A stretch of 42,401 nucleotides of DNA from a virus. Under the pieces are notes generated by a model. The model was not told where the DNA came from. It searched no databases and worked only from the letters and a program-made list of their open reading frames with translations. Shown here piece by piece: positions 7,005-40,629 of this stretch; position 1 is the stretch's first letter, and the number at the start of each line of letters is the position of its first letter. A program made the translations under genes and the position numbers. The stretch lies in IMG/VR virus record IMGVR_UViG_3300004155_000002; one strand, written 5' to 3'.

Positions 7005-8914
7005 AAGCAGTTGAGGCCGCCCTTATGGCAAAAGCACGGGCGCTGGGGCCGAGACAAAAACAGCTTCGCCTCCCGCCTCCCCCGGCCGTGAAAATCCCGG
7101 TGGAATTGGAACGCCAATACTATAAAGATCTGCGAGCCGAGGTTGTGGCCCGCCTCGGCAGAATCACCGAGCGCATTCTCGTGCCCGCCCTCCCTTCCCT
7201 TCTCAGGGGAGCGCGGGAGGATCTGCCCACGGTTGACTCGGCGGACGCCCGGCGGCTTGACTCATACACTCGTGAGCTTGATGTGCTTATGAATGGGATG
7301 AGGATTGCCTACGCCACGGAATTGACGCCCGATGAAATCGAAGCCCTTGCAAGAAAATATGCGATCAGGGGCGAGAATTGGAACAAAACCGATCTCGCAA
7401 AATCCCTGCAGCGCGTCCTCGGGATCAACCCGCTTGTCGCCGAGCCTTATTTGCCGGCAGTCATGCGCCAGTTTATTGACGAGAACACTAACCTCATTCG
7501 CTCAATTGGTTCGGAATTCTTTGGAAAGATCCAGCAAGACACCTATAAATATATTCAAGAAGGCGTTTACAACAAGGAATACGCGAAGCAAATTAGCGCG
7601 GAATTCTCTGAGGAATTCAAGCGCCAATATGAGCGGGGCATTCTGAAGCGCCGGGTGACAAATGCCGACGCAAGGGCTCGCCTCATAGCTCGGGATCAGA
7701 TCTCAAAATACAACGGACAGTTGAACCAAACGCGGCAAACTGCACTCGGGATCACAAAATACCGTTGGGTGACCGTTGGGGATGATCGCGTCCGAGAATC
7801 ACACCGCTCAAAAAACGGCAAGATCTACTCATGGAACGATCCACCCGCCGATACGGGGCATCCGGGGGATGACTACCAATGTTTTCCGGCTGACACTTCA
7901 GTTGACCTTTGTTTTGATGCAATGAAAGGTTTCCGCCGTTGGTATGACGGAAAATTGGCCTTTATCGTCACGGATTCTGGTGAATCGGTCAGATGCACAC
8001 CTAATCACCCATTTCTCACCAACCGAGGATGGATTGCCGCAAAGGATCTCAAGGAAGGAGACTATCTCTTCAAGATTTCCCAAAAAACACTCGTCCCGTT
8101 GGAAGTCAATATTTACAAATGCAAAACCACGATTGACCACAAATTCAGACTTCTTGAAAAATTTGGGATTGGTCAAACGGCTAGCGGCACGCTTAGAGAC
8201 TTCCACGGCGATGGAACCGAAAACGAGATCGATGTTGTATCGGCCCAACGCAACCTGGTGGGAGGAATGAATTCCCTTCAAAGCCAGGGCCGCCATCAAT
8301 TCGGATTCTCCGAACCCGACTCTCCGGGAGCGGCTCGCAGCAATCTTTTCAACGGTCTCATTGCTCTTCTTTTTCCCTTTGCTCGCCTTGTGTGCCTTAT
8401 CAGTCAAGCTCATTCTTTCTTCCTTGGAAAGCCGAGCCATCCTGATAAAACCCGCCTCGCTTATGTCCCTAATAGTGACTCCATTACGCCGCAAAATTCT
8501 TCTAATCGGAGTCCTAGAAACCCCTACCTCGATACTGATCGCCAATTCGCTGACGCCAGCCTGATACATCGAAACGATCTTGGCCTGGTCGAGTTTGAGG
8601 GGGGAGCAATCCCTTCGGAATTTATTGATCCCAGGATTGATCCCGAATTCTCTCAGTTTCTCGCTCAGATTGCTGTAACAGACTCCCAACTTCTCGGCGA
8701 CTTCCTTCAGAGTAAGCCCTTCGGATATGAGCTTTGCCGCATATCTGAGGTTAGTTTCCGTGAATTTTCCGGCCATGTTTACAACCTCGAAACGAAAAAA
8801 GGATGGTTCATTGCCCAGGACTTTATCACGAAAAACTGTCGCTGTACATCCGTTGCCGTTTTCGACGAGGGAGTGACAGAAAACCCGACACTATTGGGCT
8901 TATTGAATTCGTGA
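7001..8914 (+). CDS. MuF / SPP1 gp7-type head morphogenesis protein, interrupted by an in-frame intein (7880-8836)
   Basis: ATG 7001 overlaps the portal stop (ATGA). MuF hallmarks WVTVGDDRVRESHRSKNGKIY...GHPGDDYQ are followed only after 319 inserted codons by the conserved CRCT. The track ORF begins at 6968. Confidence 0.85.
   Translation: MKAVEAALMAKARALGPRQKQLRLPPPPAVKIPVELERQYYKDLRAEVVARLGRITERILVPALPSLLRGAREDLPTVDSADARRLDSYTRELDVLMNGMRIAYATELTPDEIEALARKYAIRGENWNKTDLAKSLQRVLGINPLVAEPYLPAVMRQFIDENTNLIRSIGSEFFGKIQQDTYKYIQEGVYNKEYAKQISAEFSEEFKRQYERGILKRRVTNADARARLIARDQISKYNGQLNQTRQTALGITKYRWVTVGDDRVRESHRSKNGKIYSWNDPPADTGHPGDDYQCFPADTSVDLCFDAMKGFRRWYDGKLAFIVTDSGESVRCTPNHPFLTNRGWIAAKDLKEGDYLFKISQKTLVPLEVNIYKCKTTIDHKFRLLEKFGIGQTASGTLRDFHGDGTENEIDVVSAQRNLVGGMNSLQSQGRHQFGFSEPDSPGAARSNLFNGLIALLFPFARLVCLISQAHSFFLGKPSHPDKTRLAYVPNSDSITPQNSSNRSPRNPYLDTDRQFADASLIHRNDLGLVEFEGGAIPSEFIDPRIDPEFSQFLAQIAVTDSQLLGDFLQSKPFGYELCRISEVSFREFSGHVYNLETKKGWFIAQDFITKNCRCTSVAVFDEGVTENPTLLGLLNS
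7880..8836 (+). mobile_element. Intein (Hint-type, 319 codons) in the MuF gene
   Basis: N-terminal Cys1 block CFPADTSV, block B CTPNHPF (TxxH). C-terminal block GHVYNLETKKGWFIAQDFITKN is followed by the +1 Cys of CRC. Removal restores GHPGDDYQ-CRCT. Confidence 0.8.
7898..8776 (-). CDS. Homing-endonuclease-like protein (HTH + NUMOD3-like + DUF559/Vsr-like PD-(D/E)xK motifs), antisense and fully nested in the intein
   Basis: GAGG lies 8 nt upstream of the ATG. HTH-like LTLKEVAEKLGVCYSNLSEKL and GVSELAISIEVGVSRTPIRRILRRNG. NUMOD3-like KGKKKSNETVEKIAASRS. Nuclease-core-like GESELMAALALKGIHSSHQVALGRYNIDLVFGSIAVEV. Confidence 0.65.
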   Translation of the reverse strand: MAGKFTETNLRYAAKLISEGLTLKEVAEKLGVCYSNLSEKLREFGINPGINKFRRDCSPLKLDQAKIVSMYQAGVSELAISIEVGVSRTPIRRILRRNGVTIRDISEAGFIRMARLSKEERMSLTDKAHKASKGKKKSNETVEKIAASRSRRVGFGESELMAALALKGIHSSHQVALGRYNIDLVFGSIAVEVSKRAASRLTNPKFFKKSEFVVNRGFAFVNIDFQRDECFLGNLEEIVSFLEILCGNPSSVGEKWVIRCASDRFTRIRDDKGQFSVIPTAETFHCIKTKVN

Positions 8915-8940
8915 TAGGGTTGCCCTAGAATTAGTCTAGG

Positions 8941-10095
8941 GTGACAATCATGCGAAGAATACGTTTTGACAACGGCGAAATGGCGAGGCCAGAAAAGACC
9001 CTGCAAGGGTTTCTTCGGGCACCCTGTTTCGCAACGCGATCGGGTATTTTTATTTACAAAAATGATGACGGCAGCACGCGCCGGGAGCTTCGCCCTCCCG
9101 AGGAAGTGTTCTCCCCCGAAAGCCTGGCAACGCTCGCGGGCGTTCCCGTGACCGACGAACACCCGCCCGTTGCGGTGGACGCTTCCAATGCTCGGGAGTT
9201 TGCCCGAGGGTTCACAGGTGAAAGCGTCGAAGGCGAGAACAATTTCGTGAAAACCTCGGTGACAATCACCGATGCCGATTTGATTAAAGCGATAGAAAAC
9301 CGCGAAAAGGTTGAAACCTCGTGTGGGTATTCCTGCGATCTTGATGAGTCGCCGGGCGAATGGAACGGCGAGCGGTATGATGCAATACAAAAAAACATTC
9401 GATACAATCACCTTGCAGTTGTTTCGAGGGGCCGCGCTGGCCCGGCCGTTAGAATCCGTTTGGATGCCGGCGCTGCCGTGCAGACCGAGCAAAATCAGGA
9501 AGGGGTGTTTTGCATGACAAAGATCCGTGTTGATGGGATTGAATTGGAGGTGAGCGAGCCGGTTGCTTTGGCGCTCACTGCAAAATTCAAAAAGGACGAG
9601 GAAATGGGCACGGCTTCAGGTTCGAAAATGGCCGAGCTTCAAGCTGAAATTGACAACCTCAAGGGCATGCTCGCGTCAAAAGATATCGAAATGGACGCTT
9701 GCAAGAAGGATATTGAAGGCGTTAAAGCCGAAGCCGAAGCGAACAAAATGGACTCGGCAAAAATCCATTCACTCGTGATCGCCCGCGCCGACCTTTGCAA
9801 AAAAGCCGAGAAGTTTGTTGACACCGCAAAGGTGAAACTCGACGGCTTGACCGAGCGCGAAATCAAGGTCGAGACAATCAAGGCCAAGATGAATGACTTT
9901 GACGCAAAGGATCGCACGGACGCTTATATCGACGGACTGTTTGAAGGCATCGTTTCCGTGGCCCCCGCCGCGCGCAATGATGCATTGGCAACCACCGTGG
10001 CAGCCGTGAAAACAGACGGGGCCGCCCCGACTGCAGCCGACGCCCGCAAGCGATCAATGGAAGCCGACAGAAACGCCTACAAAGCAACCAAGTAA
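8941..10095 (+). CDS. Head scaffolding / prohead protease-like protein (DUF2213-like N-terminal domain plus coiled-coil C-terminal half)
   Basis: Position between MuF and capsid genes. N-terminal half resembles DUF2213 (RELRPPEEVF...VPVTDEHP...YNHLAVV). C-terminal half is K/E/A-rich coiled coil. Alternative ATG start at 8950. Confidence 0.6.
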   Translation: MTIMRRIRFDNGEMARPEKTLQGFLRAPCFATRSGIFIYKNDDGSTRRELRPPEEVFSPESLATLAGVPVTDEHPPVAVDASNAREFARGFTGESVEGENNFVKTSVTITDADLIKAIENREKVETSCGYSCDLDESPGEWNGERYDAIQKNIRYNHLAVVSRGRAGPAVRIRLDAGAAVQTEQNQEGVFCMTKIRVDGIELEVSEPVALALTAKFKKDEEMGTASGSKMAELQAEIDNLKGMLASKDIEMDACKKDIEGVKAEAEANKMDSAKIHSLVIARADLCKKAEKFVDTAKVKLDGLTEREIKVETIKAKMNDFDAKDRTDAYIDGLFEGIVSVAPAARNDALATTVAAVKTDGAAPTAADARKRSMEADRNAYKATK

Positions 10096-10139
10096 CACCT
10101 CACCCGGATGACCCTGGTGATTTTTAGAAGGGGATTTTT

Positions 10140-11159
10140 ATGCAGACCGGATACAGCCTGACTCAGGGAATTGCGGCCGAGGGTTCGCTCGGTGATCTGG
10201 ACAAACCATATGTGCGCTCGCACGTCAACGGCACCAGCGTCAAAAAGCGCTATACCATTTCGGTTGACGCCGCCGCCGACGAGGAATTGACCCTCACCCT
10301 TACCAGCCCTGCCGGCGTGGTGACAACGGTTGCCTATAATGAAGGTGCCGTGGGCACCGTGACCACAAAGCGAAACGGCCTCATTGCCGCTGTCAATGCT
10401 TCGGTTGCTCGCCTTTATTGCCGCGCGTCCGTCAAGGATGCCGATGAGCTTTACATCGAAAGCCTCGTGGCCGGCCAGGATTTCACGGTTGCCGAGGCCG
10501 AGGGGAACCTCACACTGACAAACGACACCGCCCTGGTTTCCAATTCCACCGTTGGCTTTGGCTTGGCCGTAGCTCAGGGGACACAGGATAACGAGTGCCG
10601 CTTGCTCGCCGCCACAACCGACCGCGTGATCGGTGTGACCCTGTTCTCTCATGCCGACAATATCAACAACGGTGTGGCCGGATATGCCGCACAATCCGCT
10701 GTGAATGTCCTTCGCCGTGGCACCGTTTGGGTTCGCCCCGAGACTTCCGTTGCCGCTGGCGATCCCGTGTTCGTTCGCGCCGTGGCCGCTGGTGCCGAGC
10801 GCGCTGGTGCATTCCGCAACGCCGTTGATAGCACCGATTGCATTGCTCTCGGCGCGTCGAAATTCCTCACTAGCGCTTCCGCTGGCGGGCTGGCGCTGGT
10901 CGAAATCAACCTTGCTCAGGCCCCCATGACGACCATTGCGCCCCTCGGTGCAACCGCTGCATTCACCCTCACCGCCCCCGTGGCCGTTGCGCTCAATGCC
11001 GCATTTTCGGATGTTGAGGTTGAGGCCGGATTCCTGGCGAAGGCTGATCAGGCTGCCGTGTCAACCCTCATGGGATTGATTGAGGGAAGAATGGACGGGG
11101 CCGAAGGAAAGATCGATGCAATTATTGCGGCCCTTCGCACGGCCGGACTGATGAACTGA
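10140..11159 (+). CDS. Head decoration / cement-like protein
   Basis: Lies immediately upstream of the capsid gene. The segment GTVWVRPETSVAAGDPVFVR...AGGLALVEINL resembles DUF2190-type decoration proteins, from memory. Confidence 0.45.
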   Translation: MQTGYSLTQGIAAEGSLGDLDKPYVRSHVNGTSVKKRYTISVDAAADEELTLTLTSPAGVVTTVAYNEGAVGTVTTKRNGLIAAVNASVARLYCRASVKDADELYIESLVAGQDFTVAEAEGNLTLTNDTALVSNSTVGFGLAVAQGTQDNECRLLAATTDRVIGVTLFSHADNINNGVAGYAAQSAVNVLRRGTVWVRPETSVAAGDPVFVRAVAAGAERAGAFRNAVDSTDCIALGASKFLTSASAGGLALVEINLAQAPMTTIAPLGATAAFTLTAPVAVALNAAFSDVEVEAGFLAKADQAAVSTLMGLIEGRMDGAEGKIDAIIAALRTAGLMN

Positions 11160-36169: not shown

Positions 36170-37300
36170 TCAAAATGGTACTCGTGTGCAACCGCTTTCG
36201 CGGATCTTTTTCCTCAAGGCGTTACCCTCGCGGCGACTTTTCGTAACGCGATCTGCCATATCATCTGGGTTAATTCCCGATTCAAAATATGCGCGAAGCG
36301 CGTCAAAATTGCTCAAAATGGTATTCAGTCCGTGCACGGTTCGCACCTCAAATGCTCGCCTGGAAGTCGGATACCACGCTAGAAACTCGATCACATATTC
36401 GCGATCCGCGACATCCAAAAGCTGTTTGATATAGACGTTGTTCATTTTCCCGCGTGTGGGAGGTTTCCCATAGGTATGCTCCCATGCCTTAGCATAGGCG
36501 TTCCATGGCTCATTTGTGGGCGCTTCTTTTTTCGATGCTTCCTTTTGTGGCGGTGGTTGCTTTTGGCTCTTTTCCGCCCGCTGGCGATTTTTGGAAGGTC
36601 GTTTGGTGCCGGTGTCGCCTCCCTCCCCGTTTGATTCAACCTCGGGGCTCTTTCCCCCATTTTCCCCCGGTGCGAATGCGCCGGGGAGATCCGCCGCCGA
36701 AGGCGCGGCCGAGTGCGAGTGCGGATCGGGAAATGTATTTGAATTATTCTTATACATTTGATCTGATATTAATATGGACGGTTTTCGGGCGTCCCCCGAG
36801 ACGTCCCCCGAGACGTCCCCAGAGACGTCCCCAGAGACGTCCCCCGAGGCGTCCCCAGAGACGTCCCCCGAGGCGTCCCCCGAGACGTCCCCCGAGACGT
36901 CCCCCGAGGCGTCCCCCGAGACGTCCCCCGAGACGTCCTTGTTTTTCTTTTTTCTGAATTTCTCTTTTCTTTTCAGAGTTCTTTCGTGAGTGGCGAGACA
37001 CTTCCCGGTGTGTTCAAACCAGTCATGAATCACCATTTGCCCGGCCTCGTTCAGCACGATCCAGCCCCGCGAAATTAGTACCGCGAGAAATTTCTCGGGC
37101 TCGCCTTCCCAACGGGCGGCGTCCGCAATGTCGAGTGCCTCGGCTTCGGCTAGCACTCCGTCTGGTGCGTTCGTCCATGCCCACGCCCACAGCGAGGCGA
37201 GGTGTCCTACGAAATGCACCCCAGCGAGCCCCAGATCTCGGGCCGCTTTCCGTGTTTTCAGATTCCCAAAAATTTCGGTATTCACTTGCGCGTATGCCAT
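36170..37300 (-). CDS. Replisome-organiser / replication-initiator-like protein with a (GDVS/GDAS)n linker
   Basis: N-terminal domain HFVGHLASLWAWAWTNAPDGVL...FLAVLISRGWIVLNEAGQMVIHDWFEHTG resembles phage replisome-organiser N-domains, from memory. The central linker is encoded by the 12-bp tandem array. Confidence 0.55.
   Translation of the reverse strand: MAYAQVNTEIFGNLKTRKAARDLGLAGVHFVGHLASLWAWAWTNAPDGVLAEAEALDIADAARWEGEPEKFLAVLISRGWIVLNEAGQMVIHDWFEHTGKCLATHERTLKRKEKFRKKKNKDVSGDVSGDASGDVSGDVSGDASGDVSGDASGDVSGDVSGDVSGDVSGDARKPSILISDQMYKNNSNTFPDPHSHSAAPSAADLPGAFAPGENGGKSPEVESNGEGGDTGTKRPSKNRQRAEKSQKQPPPQKEASKKEAPTNEPWNAYAKAWEHTYGKPPTRGKMNNVYIKQLLDVADREYVIEFLAWYPTSRRAFEVRTVHGLNTILSNFDALRAYFESGINPDDMADRVTKSRREGNALRKKIRESGCTRVPF
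36788..36938. repeat. Tandem array of 12.6 copies of the 12-bp unit G(A/G)CGTCCCC(C/A)GA; iteron-like, candidate origin core
   Basis: Units counted base by base from 36788. Most units contain the palindrome GACGTC. Flanked by AT-rich 36733-36787 and T-rich 36939-36985. Confidence 0.9.
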
Positions 37301-38676: not shown

Positions 38677-38800
38677 CTTCGCATATTTCCGAGGTGTGCC
38701 CGCACATCGGGCAGGCGCGTTGCACCTCACCCGTGGGCCGGGCGTGCGAGTCAAGGACTTGTTGAATTTCCATTTCGAAATAGCAATGCGGGCAATTCAT
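38669..38800 (-). CDS. 43-aa zinc-ribbon peptide (MNCPHCYFEME...CPMCGHTSEICEDE); below the ORF-track cutoff
   Basis: My own translation. ATGA coupling to the RecT stop. Two CxxC pairs. The 3' end overlaps the next start by 8 nt. Confidence 0.5.
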   Translation of the reverse strand: MNCPHCYFEMEIQQVLDSHARPTGEVQRACPMCGHTSEICEDE

Positions 38801-39741
38801 TCCGCGCCCCCTTCCTCAGATCCCTCGGTTGGGAAATCCCCCGCCTCGGCTTCCAGGGTGAGCAAGGGCGGCAGATCCCCGCCTCCCTGGCCTGCCGATT
38901 GGCTCAGTTGGTTGGCGATATTGACGTGGGCCGCGTGGCTTTCAACGTCGATTGTGTCGCCGTCCTCATGGTCGGACTCGATTGCTCGGGCCATTTCTGT
39001 GCTCACGGGGAGCATTTTGCAAAGCCTTTTGACAACGGTTTTCCTGGCCATTTCGTCATAACTAGTTGTCCAGGGGGAGTCGGGTTTTCCGGCCGATTGG
39101 GAGCGGGATTTAATAGCGTCAACTTGGCTTCGGCTCATAACTTCCAACTGTGTGCCGCCGTCTTTCAAATGCGCCACGGCGTAAACAAGTCGCAATTCCC
39201 CACGGCTTTCCGCGTCGAAATTGGGGACGTGTCGCAAGCGCGTGTCAAGCCCTAGTTCGCATTCAAATAGATCATTTGTATATACGCAGTGGGCGGCAAG
39301 GCTTTTGATCTCGCCAGAGCGGCGGGAAAGATCCACGAGCCCCCGATAGCCGATCTGAAATTGCACTTCATAGCCGCCCTTGCCGTTGTTCAATCTGCGA
39401 TTGAAATACGGTATCAGCCAAGCGTGCTGCAGCGGGGTATTGGGTTCCAAGCCCACGGCCGCCGATTCAAGCGAGGCGCGAAGCAATGACACGGGCGAGC
39501 ATTCTAACAGTTTGGGCGTGCGGGAAACGGCAATCAAAGCGATCCTGATCATGCGCTCGGGGTCAAGATGCTTTGGCATGATTTGAGAAAATTTCTCTTT
39601 TTGTGACTCAAAAAGAGATCGCAAGTTTTGCTCTGGCGACTTCGCCACGGCCTGTGATCCGTTCGCTGCAGGGGCCAGCGTGGTTGTAGGCGTGGTGATC
39701 GTGGGGGACTTTTTGGTTTCCTGGATTGTGGTGGCGTTCAT
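38797..39741 (-). CDS. recT: RecT-family single-strand annealing protein
   Basis: RMIRIALIAVSRTPKLLECSPVSLLRASLESAAVGLEP ... FQIGYRGLVDL ... DEMARKTVVKRL follow the RecT family pattern. Paired with an upstream exonuclease. Confidence 0.85.
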   Translation of the reverse strand: MNATTIQETKKSPTITTPTTTLAPAANGSQAVAKSPEQNLRSLFESQKEKFSQIMPKHLDPERMIRIALIAVSRTPKLLECSPVSLLRASLESAAVGLEPNTPLQHAWLIPYFNRRLNNGKGGYEVQFQIGYRGLVDLSRRSGEIKSLAAHCVYTNDLFECELGLDTRLRHVPNFDAESRGELRLVYAVAHLKDGGTQLEVMSRSQVDAIKSRSQSAGKPDSPWTTSYDEMARKTVVKRLCKMLPVSTEMARAIESDHEDGDTIDVESHAAHVNIANQLSQSAGQGGGDLPPLLTLEAEAGDFPTEGSEEGGAE

Positions 39742-40629
39742 TTAAAATCCCTTTCGTGGGTTGGTGAGCGGAAGCAATTCGGTCGGGTATCCGGGCCATT
39801 CCCCGGACAGTGTACACTCGGCATAAGTTTGCACGTTTTTAAGGTAGTGAGCACGGCCTACGTTCAGAAACTCGGGATCGGCAACGTATGCCGCCACGAG
39901 GTAGGGCGGCTCTTTCTCAACCGCGATGAATATGAATGCATCGGTTTTCTCCGCGCTGGCATCGGCGAGGCCATCGGAATAGCTCGCGGCCTGCACATGG
40001 TAGCGGTATTGATAGTAGCTCTTTTTCGGAAAATCTAACGGGTCGGCCGAAAGCGCGGTTTTCAGATCGACTATGATCCGCCCCCCATTGGGAGGGAAAA
40101 CGAGGCGATCCATGCGCCCTTTACAAAGCACGGGCGGGGTTTTGGGATCGATCTGGCTTGTCCACAGGGCGGTCAATTCCGCGTGCCCCGGCCATTCCCA
40201 AAACAACTGCCGGGCAAGCGGGTGTCTCCAAAGGGCCTCCCGCATGCGCTCAATTTGCTCATAGTCCTCACGGTTCAATGGCGTTGCGTTTCCTTTATTT
40301 TCCTCCCATTCTTTTTTCTTGGCCTTGCTCCCCTTGCCTTCGAACGTGGGGGCCACGCAAAAATCAACCTTGAATTCCTCGGGCGTGAGAATCGCGGAAT
40401 GGATTGCCCGGCCGAAGGTGAGGGCGCTTGTTTCCTCCCGATCCTCGGGGTGATCTTTCAGCCAGCGATATTTGGCCGGGGCCTCGTTTATTTTGTCGCA
40501 GTCGGACTTTGAAAGCCGACGCAAGGCGCGGTAGTCTGGATCGGGTAGATCTTCGACCACGCCAAAGAGCAAGCGGTCAAGCGGGTTGGGTGGGTGATAA
40601 TCCGGGATCACTAACATATGATCCTCCAT
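39742..40629 (-). CDS. PD-(D/E)xK exonuclease (RecE/Cas4-like fold), partner of RecT
   Basis: FGRAIHSAIL ... GRMDRLVF...IIVDLKT ... YRYHVQAASY gives a D..(D)LK + QxxxY arrangement. GGAGGA RBS. Confidence 0.75.
   Translation of the reverse strand: MEDHMLVIPDYHPPNPLDRLLFGVVEDLPDPDYRALRRLSKSDCDKINEAPAKYRWLKDHPEDREETSALTFGRAIHSAILTPEEFKVDFCVAPTFEGKGSKAKKKEWEENKGNATPLNREDYEQIERMREALWRHPLARQLFWEWPGHAELTALWTSQIDPKTPPVLCKGRMDRLVFPPNGGRIIVDLKTALSADPLDFPKKSYYQYRYHVQAASYSDGLADASAEKTDAFIFIAVEKEPPYLVAAYVADPEFLNVGRAHYLKNVQTYAECTLSGEWPGYPTELLPLTNPRKGF

Follow-up and report, generated by a model that had tools for sequence, protein, structure and literature searches.

Endonuclease genes that lie antisense to an intein have been in the literature, as a principle, since 1998—for LAGLIDADG enzymes (Gorbalenya 1998 and Gogarten 2002, both as cited in Gosselin, Arsenault and Gogarten, bioRxiv 10.1101/2025.01.02.630785). 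The citing preprint itself describes full inteins in minor capsid proteins of the MuF-like kind that carry VSR-like endonucleases in antisense. The subject of this work is a locus of this latter type on the IMG/VR virus record IMGVR_UViG_3300004155_000002, a tailed-phage genome segment of 42,401 nucleotides (nt), which is referred to as the window. The window encodes a MuF-type minor head protein that is interrupted in frame by a contiguous class 1 intein. Within this intein, the minus strand bears an open reading frame (ORF) of 292 amino acids (aa) for a putative homing endonuclease.

According to the preprint, the minor capsid inteins all come with noncanonical endonucleases, the in-frame middle of these inteins is unstructured and there are signs of ongoing transfer. 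In the supplement, Malisha gp5, Vivi2 gp14, Angelicage, Affeca, and Fosterous are entered under "minor capsid, MuF-like, class 1, VSR -1 ORF", and an HHpred match of the VSR-like endonuclease to 3R3P is given. Such ORFs are described as typically lying outside the splicing domain, and a rare, recent invasion by a free-standing endonuclease gene is proposed (10.1101/2025.01.02.630785). The locus of the window shares with these inteins the host protein, the insertion motif N/CRC (here and in the following, the slash marks the insertion point), the class 1 assignment, the contiguous splicing frame and the Vsr-like antisense ORF in the -1 frame; the listed Vivi2 gp14 and Malisha gp5 are homologous to its minus-strand ORF. 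Unlike the described cases, however, the window does not belong to an actinophage, and its relatives infect Proteobacteria and many other phyla. Compared with the preprint, the type is also common here—with more than 556 IMG/VR matches and 986 protein clusters—and the ORF of the window overlaps the N-terminal splicing lobe by approximately 115 codons.

The Synechocystis DnaX and Chloroflexus SpoVR-like inteins, as far as they are quoted in the preprint, likewise carry an endonuclease opposite a contiguous intein, but these are LAGLIDADG enzymes in other host proteins of other organisms. The "fractured genes" (Dassa et al. 2009, PMC2677866) combine a Vsr-like endonuclease gene with intein halves in phage-like DNA. 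There, two ORFs flank a Vsr-like or GIY-YIG gene, whereas here the frame is continuous and the endonuclease gene lies on the opposite strand; antisense coding is not mentioned in that study. I-Bth0305I of the EDxHD family (Taylor et al. 2011, PMC3239194; 3r3p) bears a Vsr-like PD-(D/E)xK domain as well, to which our profile match is nonsignificant (E 0.7). In contrast to the locus of the window, I-Bth0305I is encoded on the sense strand in a group I intron, and no conserved EDxHD His is evident here. In a Mu-like prophage of Methylococcus capsulatus, the F protein (Mu gp30) carries an intein that "lacks a recognizable endonuclease sequence" (Ward et al. 2004, PMC517821). It resembles the window intein in residing in an F/MuF head protein and in its affinity to IF-2 inteins: the Methylococcus intein is most similar to archaeal ones, and the window intein hits the intein-containing IF-2 model PRK14845. 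Finally, a gene of the Acinetobacter phages BUCT629 and IME285 belongs to the same endonuclease family at full length, including its C-terminal hairpin; on the contrary, it is not nested, the MuF beside it is intein-less and its antisense frame contains 12 stops.

Both the arrangement and this very family are hence already described—contrary to the original prediction, made from the sequence of the window alone, which held an intein reading through the antisense of a nested endonuclease gene to be undescribed. The window adds a member outside the actinophages. Beyond the preprint go the breadth and apparent constancy of the association, the quantified avoidance of stops, the start signals in intein block F, the free-standing relative beside an intein-less MuF and the overlap of about 115 codons with a folded lobe, none of which we claim as established.

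The plus-strand product is an intein by its motifs, by curated models and by its predicted fold, and it is predicted to splice. The intein starts with Cys1 (codon at 7880) as CFPADT, contains TPNHP, and ends with GHVYNLE...ITKN, whose terminal Asn (8834-8836) is followed by CRC. TIGR01445 (intein_Nterm) is matched with 24.7 bits at a cut-off of 24.5, and Pfam Intein_splicing reaches 41.4 bits after removal of a central filler and 33.6 bits with the filler in place, which is below its cut-off of 35.8. Among 20 homologues, C16, T55, N57, H58, N334, and C335 are invariant (numbering of the 359-aa query, 7835-8911), and the C-terminal FSGHVYNLET..HN/C is conserved. The surrounding MuF ORF, positioned between the portal and head protease genes, matches Pfam Phage_Mu_F over aa 187-305 (E 2.2e-18), a match that ends exactly at the intein Cys, and also TIGR01641 (phageSPP1_gp7) and phrog_15127 "head protein" (E 6e-86, aa 90-639). 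Upon removal of the intein in silico, the MuF Pfam score rises from 67.5 to 81.3 bits and the profile coverage from 2-107 to 2-110 of 112. The insertion point is the most conserved MuF motif, and intein-less MuF alleles bear both extein halves contiguously.

In the AlphaFold2 (AF2) model of the intein, which rests on an alignment of 20 homologues, the N-terminal lobe shows block means of pLDDT (predicted local distance difference test) of 78 to 95 over most of its length and of 50 to 79 at its 3' end. The filler remains below 50 throughout (block means 25-43), and its length and sequence vary freely across these homologues. The plus product is thereby modeled as a mini-intein whose usual endonuclease position holds an unstructured insert, and the original view of the central translation as mere filler stands, as this part is also unconstrained. 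A Foldseek comparison of the model with the Protein Data Bank (PDB) returns only inteins or Hedgehog HINT domains among the top 50. The E-values are weak for this model as for that of the minus-strand protein; multi-domain or low-confidence regions are involved in both, and we treat these comparisons as supporting evidence only. As a side observation, the plus-strand motif DFHGDG..(E/D)(I/V)DVV at 8201-8242 is nearly invariant in the relatives, yet lies partly below a pLDDT of 50. On the opposite strand, it mirrors the active-site strands of the nuclease (NIDL..AVE), and an ATCGAT within it codes for Ile-Asp on both strands.

The minus-strand ORF lies wholly inside the intein, 18 nt from its 5' end and 60 nt from its 3' end. 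The codons of both strands coincide, and the minus-strand stop is the plus-strand codon TCA at 7898-7900. All these positions, together with those of the intein and of a GAGG 8 nt upstream of the ATG, had been predicted and were reproduced on the sequence. Two helix-turn-helix (HTH) segments had been proposed as well, and both are recovered as three-helix domains by AF2. The second one matches Pfam HTH_23 with 30.0 bits (cut-off 24.6) over aa 62-97, and the profile of the protein matches the PAI subdomain of Sleeping Beauty there (E 2.7e-4). The first one reaches several Pfam HTH families below threshold, for example, RWP-RK with 27.9 bits over aa 21-46. A NUMOD3-like motif, on the other hand, finds no support: Pfam gives no NUMOD3 match at E up to 1, and the respective stretch is modeled as a helical linker (pLDDT block means 57-70).

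For the Vsr-like core, the predicted fold and weak profile matches support the original assignment, whereas a curated DUF559 or Vsr match is missing. AF2 places helices at aa 157-166 and 204-215 and strands at aa 172-177, 180-186, 189-195, and 219-225, and Foldseek aligns the core with the endonuclease-like protein 3hrl at a target-normalized template modeling score of 0.72 and a root-mean-square deviation of 3.2 Å. The mean pLDDT of the whole protein is 77.7, with five sequences in the alignment. E157, Q174, D183, and E192 are invariant in the six-sequence alignment A1. An invariant His in the sense of the EDxHD motif is found in the nuclease region of neither alignment A1 nor alignment A2, a comparison made without residue-level mapping to 3r3p. 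Structure prediction for the 292-aa product, as the original prediction had suggested, hence yields a nuclease-like fold plus HTH domains. The protein ends in a β-hairpin whose motif WVIRC is the antisense of the intein's TPNHP, and the free-standing Acinetobacter homologue keeps this hairpin although no reading frame runs antisense to it. The placement of the ORF as nested within the intein is correct in that it lies entirely inside; it is, however, not simply in the linker, as its C-terminal 115 or so codons overlap the folded N-terminal lobe. Judged by homology, conservation and predicted fold, the minus-strand ORF encodes a real protein.

This judgment builds on a large family. A profile search of 1.84 billion representative proteins collects 986 clusters at E<=1e-30, mostly of 280 to 300 aa, and tblastn finds full-length homologues in 117 phage records at 26 to 36% identity. 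An annotated MuF or head gene harbors the homologue in antisense in Edwardsiella phage MSW-3, in Aaphi23, and in the Gordonia phages Vivi2 (31% identity over aa 11-291, E 2e-26 in tblastn) and Malisha (29% over aa 1-284, E 2e-19 in tblastn), and the same antisense placement is seen in Klebsiella, Vibrio, Idiomarinaceae, Pseudomonas, and Salmonella Jerseyvirus phages. Genome scans seeded only with conserved intein peptides (blocks B and F) delivered 26 loci in genomes of many bacterial phyla and 80 of the more than 556 IMG/VR matches. In every complete locus (120/120), a single antisense endonuclease ORF is intact and the MuF frame is open, and in all nested relatives, as in the window, it is the MuF frame that lies codon-aligned opposite the endonuclease. 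The core of the original claim, a contiguous intein whose frame runs through the antisense of a nested endonuclease gene, thus applies to all of these loci. Neither minus-frame stops nor a broken plus frame was seen in the 120 loci. None of them is split, and the idea of an intermediate between contiguous and split inteins is speculation.

The free-standing full-length homologues of the Acinetobacter phages BUCT629 and IME285 (loci L019 and L016) lie on the strand opposite MuF. The gene converges on an intein-less MuF of 258 aa and overlaps its 3' end by 7 nt (in L019, ORFs 3001-3894 on the plus and 3888-4664 on the minus strand). It is located about 50 nt from the CKCR codons, the site of the intein in other phages.

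Within the window alone, the openness of both frames would say little. The minus-strand ORF contains 23 Leu and 27 Ser codons without a single TTA, CTA, or TCA—a count that agrees with the earlier one of about 50 such codons. With the codon usage of the window (9230 codons), 6.5 antisense stops are expected, and the probability of none is 9e-4. Other genes of the window show codon-aligned antisense open runs of 233 to 377 codons, and long antisense ORFs (205-306 aa, all minus) are found in the portal, protease, and capsid-region genes at 5580-6500, 8779-9492, and 10077-10694. These three controls have no Pfam matches and seem to result simply from TTA, CTA, and TCA being scarce. The caution of the original prediction is therefore justified: openness in the window genome alone is weak evidence, and protein content together with comparison decides.

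This comparison was made on 97 nonredundant copies (below 70% identity), 90 of which entered a stop statistic with local codon usage. Approximately 516 stops are expected in the intein frame and none is observed, with a summed log10 P of -261; hence, selection keeps the plus frame open. The free-standing BUCT629 homologue serves as a natural control, as its 12 such stops compare with 12.7 expected. For individual high-GC relatives, the chance of finding no stop lies between 0.1 and 0.7.

The two strands can further be separated by their substitution patterns, a comparison that had been suggested at the outset and that points to purifying selection on the minus frame and to constraint on the plus frame in the lobes. 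Over aa 11-175 of the endonuclease (about 8250-8746), codon position 1 of the minus strand is more conserved than position 3, and the mean BLOSUM62 score is 0.4 to 1.4 in the minus frame and about 0 in the plus frame. The signature is reversed over intein blocks A and B (7919-8053), and the frames are equal around the nuclease core (8189-8233). In a resampling test, synonymous codons were redrawn while the protein of one strand was held fixed. The minus frame always exceeds the expectation from plus-strand constraint alone (z = 18-94). Conversely, the plus frame shows a clear excess over the expectation from minus-strand constraint only in the intein lobes, with 0.07 to 0.17 BLOSUM62 units in the filler. 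The low-pLDDT stretch 8249-8722 coincides exactly with the stretch constrained only on the minus strand. In terms of sequence conservation, constraint falls on the minus strand alone over the central 475 nt or so, whereas the ends are conserved as parts of the intein.

Where the nuclease and the N-terminal lobe share their codons, both signals are present. Both frames are in excess by about 1.3 BLOSUM62 units at endonuclease aa 176-196, and the minus-frame excess is about 0.5 units at aa 237-290. The core codons GTC GCC GTG GAA (VAVE on the minus and FHGD on the plus strand) are fixed in phages of 42 to 68% GC, whereas the free-standing copy uses other synonymous codons at these positions. From these patterns, about 115 codons (aa 176-290 of the endonuclease) appear to be constrained on both strands.

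The signals that delimit the endonuclease gene are themselves intein codons. Its ATG lies opposite the CAT (8774-8776) that encodes the block F His, the His of GHVYNLE, and the GAGG upstream is the antisense of a CCTC within Asn-Leu codons (8785-8788). Among the loci with a recognized block F, the His codon is CAT in 97 and CAC in 3, and GGAG, GAGG, or AAGG stands 8 nt upstream of the ATG in almost all loci. The stop in most cases lies opposite a codon for Ser or Leu at intein position 6-7. With its start and stop signals in intein codons, the endonuclease gene of the loci checked hence has both its ends within the intein. The coordinates of all features are collected in Table 1.

Table 1. Coordinates of the intein, the antisense endonuclease gene and neighboring features in the window
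Feature	Position	Strand	Basis or remark
Nested antisense gene, putative homing endonuclease, 292 aa	7898-8776	-	ATG start
First HTH domain, aa 7-43	8648-8758	-	AF2, three helices
Second HTH domain, aa 64-97	8486-8587	-	Pfam HTH_23
Helical linker, aa 107-151, includes basic stretch	8324-8458	-	AF2, helices 107-114, 118-134, 139-151
PD-(D/E)xK / Vsr-like nuclease core, aa 157-247	8036-8308	-	AF2, alpha-beta-beta-beta-alpha-beta-alpha
C-terminal β-hairpin of endonuclease, aa 255-291, antisense to intein blocks A and B	7904-8014	-	AF2
Endonuclease translation start signals, embedded in intein block F	8774-8788	-	ATG and GAGG
Class 1 intein, 319 aa	7880-8836	+	Cys1, TPNH (block B), GHVYNLE (block F), KN, then Cys+1
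N-terminal lobe of splicing (HINT) domain, includes conserved DFHGDG..EIDVV	7880-8242	+	AF2
Central filler, 158 aa, at usual intein endonuclease position	8249-8722	+	AF2, pLDDT <50
C-terminal lobe of splicing domain (blocks F, G)	8723-8836	+	AF2, pLDDT block means 86-96
MuF (SPP1 gp7 / Mu F type) minor head protein precursor, 648 aa, intein in frame	6968-8914	+	No internal stop
N-extein, ends ...HPGDDYQ	6968-7879	+	Pfam MuF match stops at junction
C-extein CRCTSVAVF..., 25 aa, and stop codon	8837-8914	+	CRC completes conserved MuF motif ...N/CRC
Left half of putative homing site	7865-7879		Joined to 8837-8851 gives intein-less allele GGGGATGACTACCAA/TGTCGCTGTACATCC; from Jerseyvirus/Kagunavirus presence/absence alleles and window flanks
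Large terminase	3627-5069
Portal	5073-7004	+
Head protease	8941-10095
Replication initiator	36170-37300	-
RecT-like annealing protein	38797-39741	-
Exonuclease VIII-like protein	39742-40629	-

Concerning mobility, a search for intein-less and intein-bearing MuF alleles, as originally suggested, found both at close range. A spliced PK1 MuF query retrieves intein-less alleles of about 93% identity in the E. coli phages XY1 and K1H and in Salmonella phage ER10; the intein-bearing counterparts are PK1, LPSE1, and L223. The junction is precise at HPN/C in these Jerseyvirus and Kagunavirus phages, and the intein-less XY1/K1H allele reads ...CCCATCCGAAC/TGCCGGTCG... at the insertion point. In two IMG/VR contigs (L107 and L120), the intein block shows 91 to 99% nucleotide identity within flanks of 61 to 84%, and the borders of identity are sharp and coincide with the intein ends, which indicates, on sequence grounds, a recent transfer of the intein unit. 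Across the family, endonuclease and extein identities correlate with r = 0.76; hence, much of the inheritance is vertical.

In our view, the locus is probably a composite selfish element in a phage MuF gene, with an intein on the plus and a homing endonuclease on the minus strand. The comparison of sequences shows how it is built, its homology, constraint on both strands, a sporadic distribution, and, among relatives, transfer as a block, and we infer antisense transcription and translation, splicing, and site-specific cleavage. A ribosome would read through the insert of about 158 aa, and the intein would excise itself to give a functional MuF. During coinfection, the minus-strand protein might cut an intein-less MuF gene at or near the insertion site (...GATGACTACCAA/TGTCGCTGT...). 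Recombinational repair, possibly by the phage RecT/exonuclease pair, would copy the intein together with the nested gene into the cut allele, where splicing would rescue MuF. Two selective forces would thus meet in one stretch of DNA: the need of the phage for spliced MuF and the purifying selection on the endonuclease itself. TTA, CTA, and TCA would be excluded from the endonuclease gene because they are stops in the intein frame and the phage needs spliced MuF.

The window encodes a RecT-like annealing protein and an exonuclease VIII-like protein in adjacent genes, and a replication initiator on the same minus strand. The former pair could repair a break made by the endonuclease. As for the endonuclease transcript, genes just 3' of MuF are oriented like the endonuclease and converge on MuF in MSW-3, in contig L005, and in Klebsiella phage KpTDp1; such converging small genes span 2187-3881 in L005, 497-2357 in L001, and 445-975 in L004. 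They could supply the transcript there, and the window has no such genes.

Several points weigh against a composite homing element. For the minus-strand protein, Foldseek E-values of about 1e-2 express a weak similarity to solved nucleases, the profile matches to the PDB are weak (3hrl with E 0.018 and I-Bth0305I, 3r3p, with E 0.7 over aa 160-233), and no curated nuclease family in Pfam, NCBIfam, or PADLOC is matched. The Lys of the E-x-K signature is unconserved, as K, S, T, Y, H, or other residues occur two positions behind E192. No sigma-70-like promoter was found on the minus strand in 7600-9300 with a crude consensus that may not be that of the host, and the neighboring genes in the window are all on the plus strand. 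The penultimate residue of the intein is Lys in the window and His in most relatives. On the comparative side, the codon alignments were guided by the minus-strand protein, kinship was controlled crudely by the 70% identity filter, and the block B and F search patterns possibly missed endonuclease-less or split variants. The copy of the window reaches 46% identity to its best relative among the IMG/VR matches listed, so that its own recent mobility is not implied, and an IMG/VR search with the single endonuclease protein found no close relative; sporadic presence and flank-independent transfer are documented for relatives rather than for the window's own copy.

A different role of the minus-strand protein is the alternative that survives best, although we consider it unlikely. 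Herein, the protein would be functional without homing, or without homing any longer—domesticated as a DNA-binding regulator or as a nuclease against competing phages—and the intein would tolerate it. The two HTH domains and the unconserved E-x-K Lys would fit such a role, and so would the vertical component in the correlation of intein and endonuclease with extein identities. Also, an ORF that is intact in 120 of 120 loci, with zero decayed copies, is unusual, as homing genes are expected to decay once fixed. Nevertheless, the element is precisely present or absent among close relatives, and the intein block of 91 to 99% identity within diverged flanks reflects the transfer of exactly this unit. 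E157, D183, and E192 are invariant in alignment A1, and PADLOC gives no match, on which ground a defense-system nuclease was rejected. Free-standing homing endonuclease genes typically sit near their target site, and the free-standing homologue of the Acinetobacter phages lies about 50 nt from the same MuF site.

Less probable still is that the plus frame is no working contiguous intein, be it that MuF is made in pieces—functionally split like a fractured gene—or that the insert is tolerated in the mature protein. The splicing of the plus product is a prediction, the penultimate residue in the window is a Lys, an insert of 158 aa with low confidence separates the lobes, and free-standing Vsr-like endonuclease genes are known to accompany split inteins (Dassa 2009, PMC2677866). 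On the contrary, the absence of stops in 90 nonredundant lineages against about 516 expected reflects selection for read-through, which would be needless in a split gene. Moreover, Cys1, TxxH, the terminal Asn, and Cys+1 are conserved, both splicing lobes are modeled with high confidence, and the insertion hits the most conserved MuF motif. An ordinary split intein was rejected, as the plus frame is continuous in the window and in 120 of 120 relatives.

The notion that the minus-strand ORF is a noncoding by-product—open by scarcity of TTA, CTA, and TCA, as the antisense runs of 233 to 377 codons in other window genes and the single-copy chances of 0.1 to 0.7 in high-GC relatives might suggest, and conserved as a mirror of the intein, as WVIRC-type motifs mirror block B—is effectively refuted by the comparative data: an HTH domain above the Pfam cut-off in a confident predicted fold, conservation of the minus frame precisely where the plus frame is not conserved, resampling z-scores of 18 to 94, a free-standing homologue without an open antisense frame, a family of 986 clusters, a conserved ATG with Shine-Dalgarno motif, and control antisense ORFs without domain matches.

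If the locus is a composite element of intein and homing endonuclease, a further question is how tightly the two partners are bound. The evidence seems evenly balanced on whether they are co-encoded and coevolving, which would make the locus an old, obligately two-stranded mobile element of MuF genes in many phyla, instead of the rare, recent invasion that the preprint suggests. The stretch of about 7904-8245 would then encode the folded splicing lobe in one direction and the C-terminal half of the nuclease in the other, both apparently under purifying selection. Under such co-encoding, part of one protein may derive by overprinting the other, and the free-standing Acinetobacter copy—which keeps the overlapped C-terminal part—would be an escapee.

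Apart from these main features, the family and the surroundings of the locus show some variation. Members of 390 to 440 aa, or with a profile match in two to three stretches, exist (P0031, P0072, P0095, and P0104); in two loci (L036 and L047), a double match of the HTH region points to an additional HTH repeat, and other over-long members probably reflect a start codon placed too far upstream by the gene call. Pseudomonas and Salmonella phages also have a shorter form that bears a single HTH. In the Salmonella phages GE_vB_M5 (L128) and GE_vB_HIL, the MuF-intein region matches in three to four pieces, and the endonuclease match of GE_vB_M5 is a fragment only. These may be decaying copies, but we did not count them as such: the GE_vB_M5 record is UNVERIFIED and unannotated, and sequencing errors are equally likely.

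Gene annotation treats the two strands unequally. Most GenBank phage records annotate MuF and not the antisense gene, with Salmonella phage PK1 (L021) annotating both, whereas the gene calls of four metagenomic contigs (L005, L007, L011, and L020) include the antisense ORF and omit the longer MuF-intein ORF, which leaves an apparent gap beside the portal gene. In the window itself, the portal protein bears a C-terminal extension of about 200 aa past the portal family match. The end of this extension (aa 543-635) matches phrog_2859, a PHROG of unknown function, and the portal and MuF ORFs overlap by 37 nt. A tape measure protein and an endolysin are encoded as well, and a megablast of 25 kb of the window against phage genomes gave zero matches.

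Inteins with an antisense Vsr-like endonuclease are neither confined to actinophages nor rare. They are found in Salmonella Jerseyvirus phages, Aaphi23, Edwardsiella phage MSW-3, and phages of Klebsiella, Pseudomonas, and Vibrio, and also in hundreds of viral contigs and, across many phyla, in genome regions that resemble prophages—with the antisense gene almost never annotated in the carrier genomes. They provide a natural case of long antisense dual coding with a clear selective reason for each strand and, thus, a test case for gene finders and for methods that address overlapping genes. They are also a source of candidate site-specific nucleases and of contiguous inteins that tolerate an unstructured insert of about 160 aa. 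If the deep overlap with the splicing domain is real, one may ask by what route two folded domains ended up with common codons.

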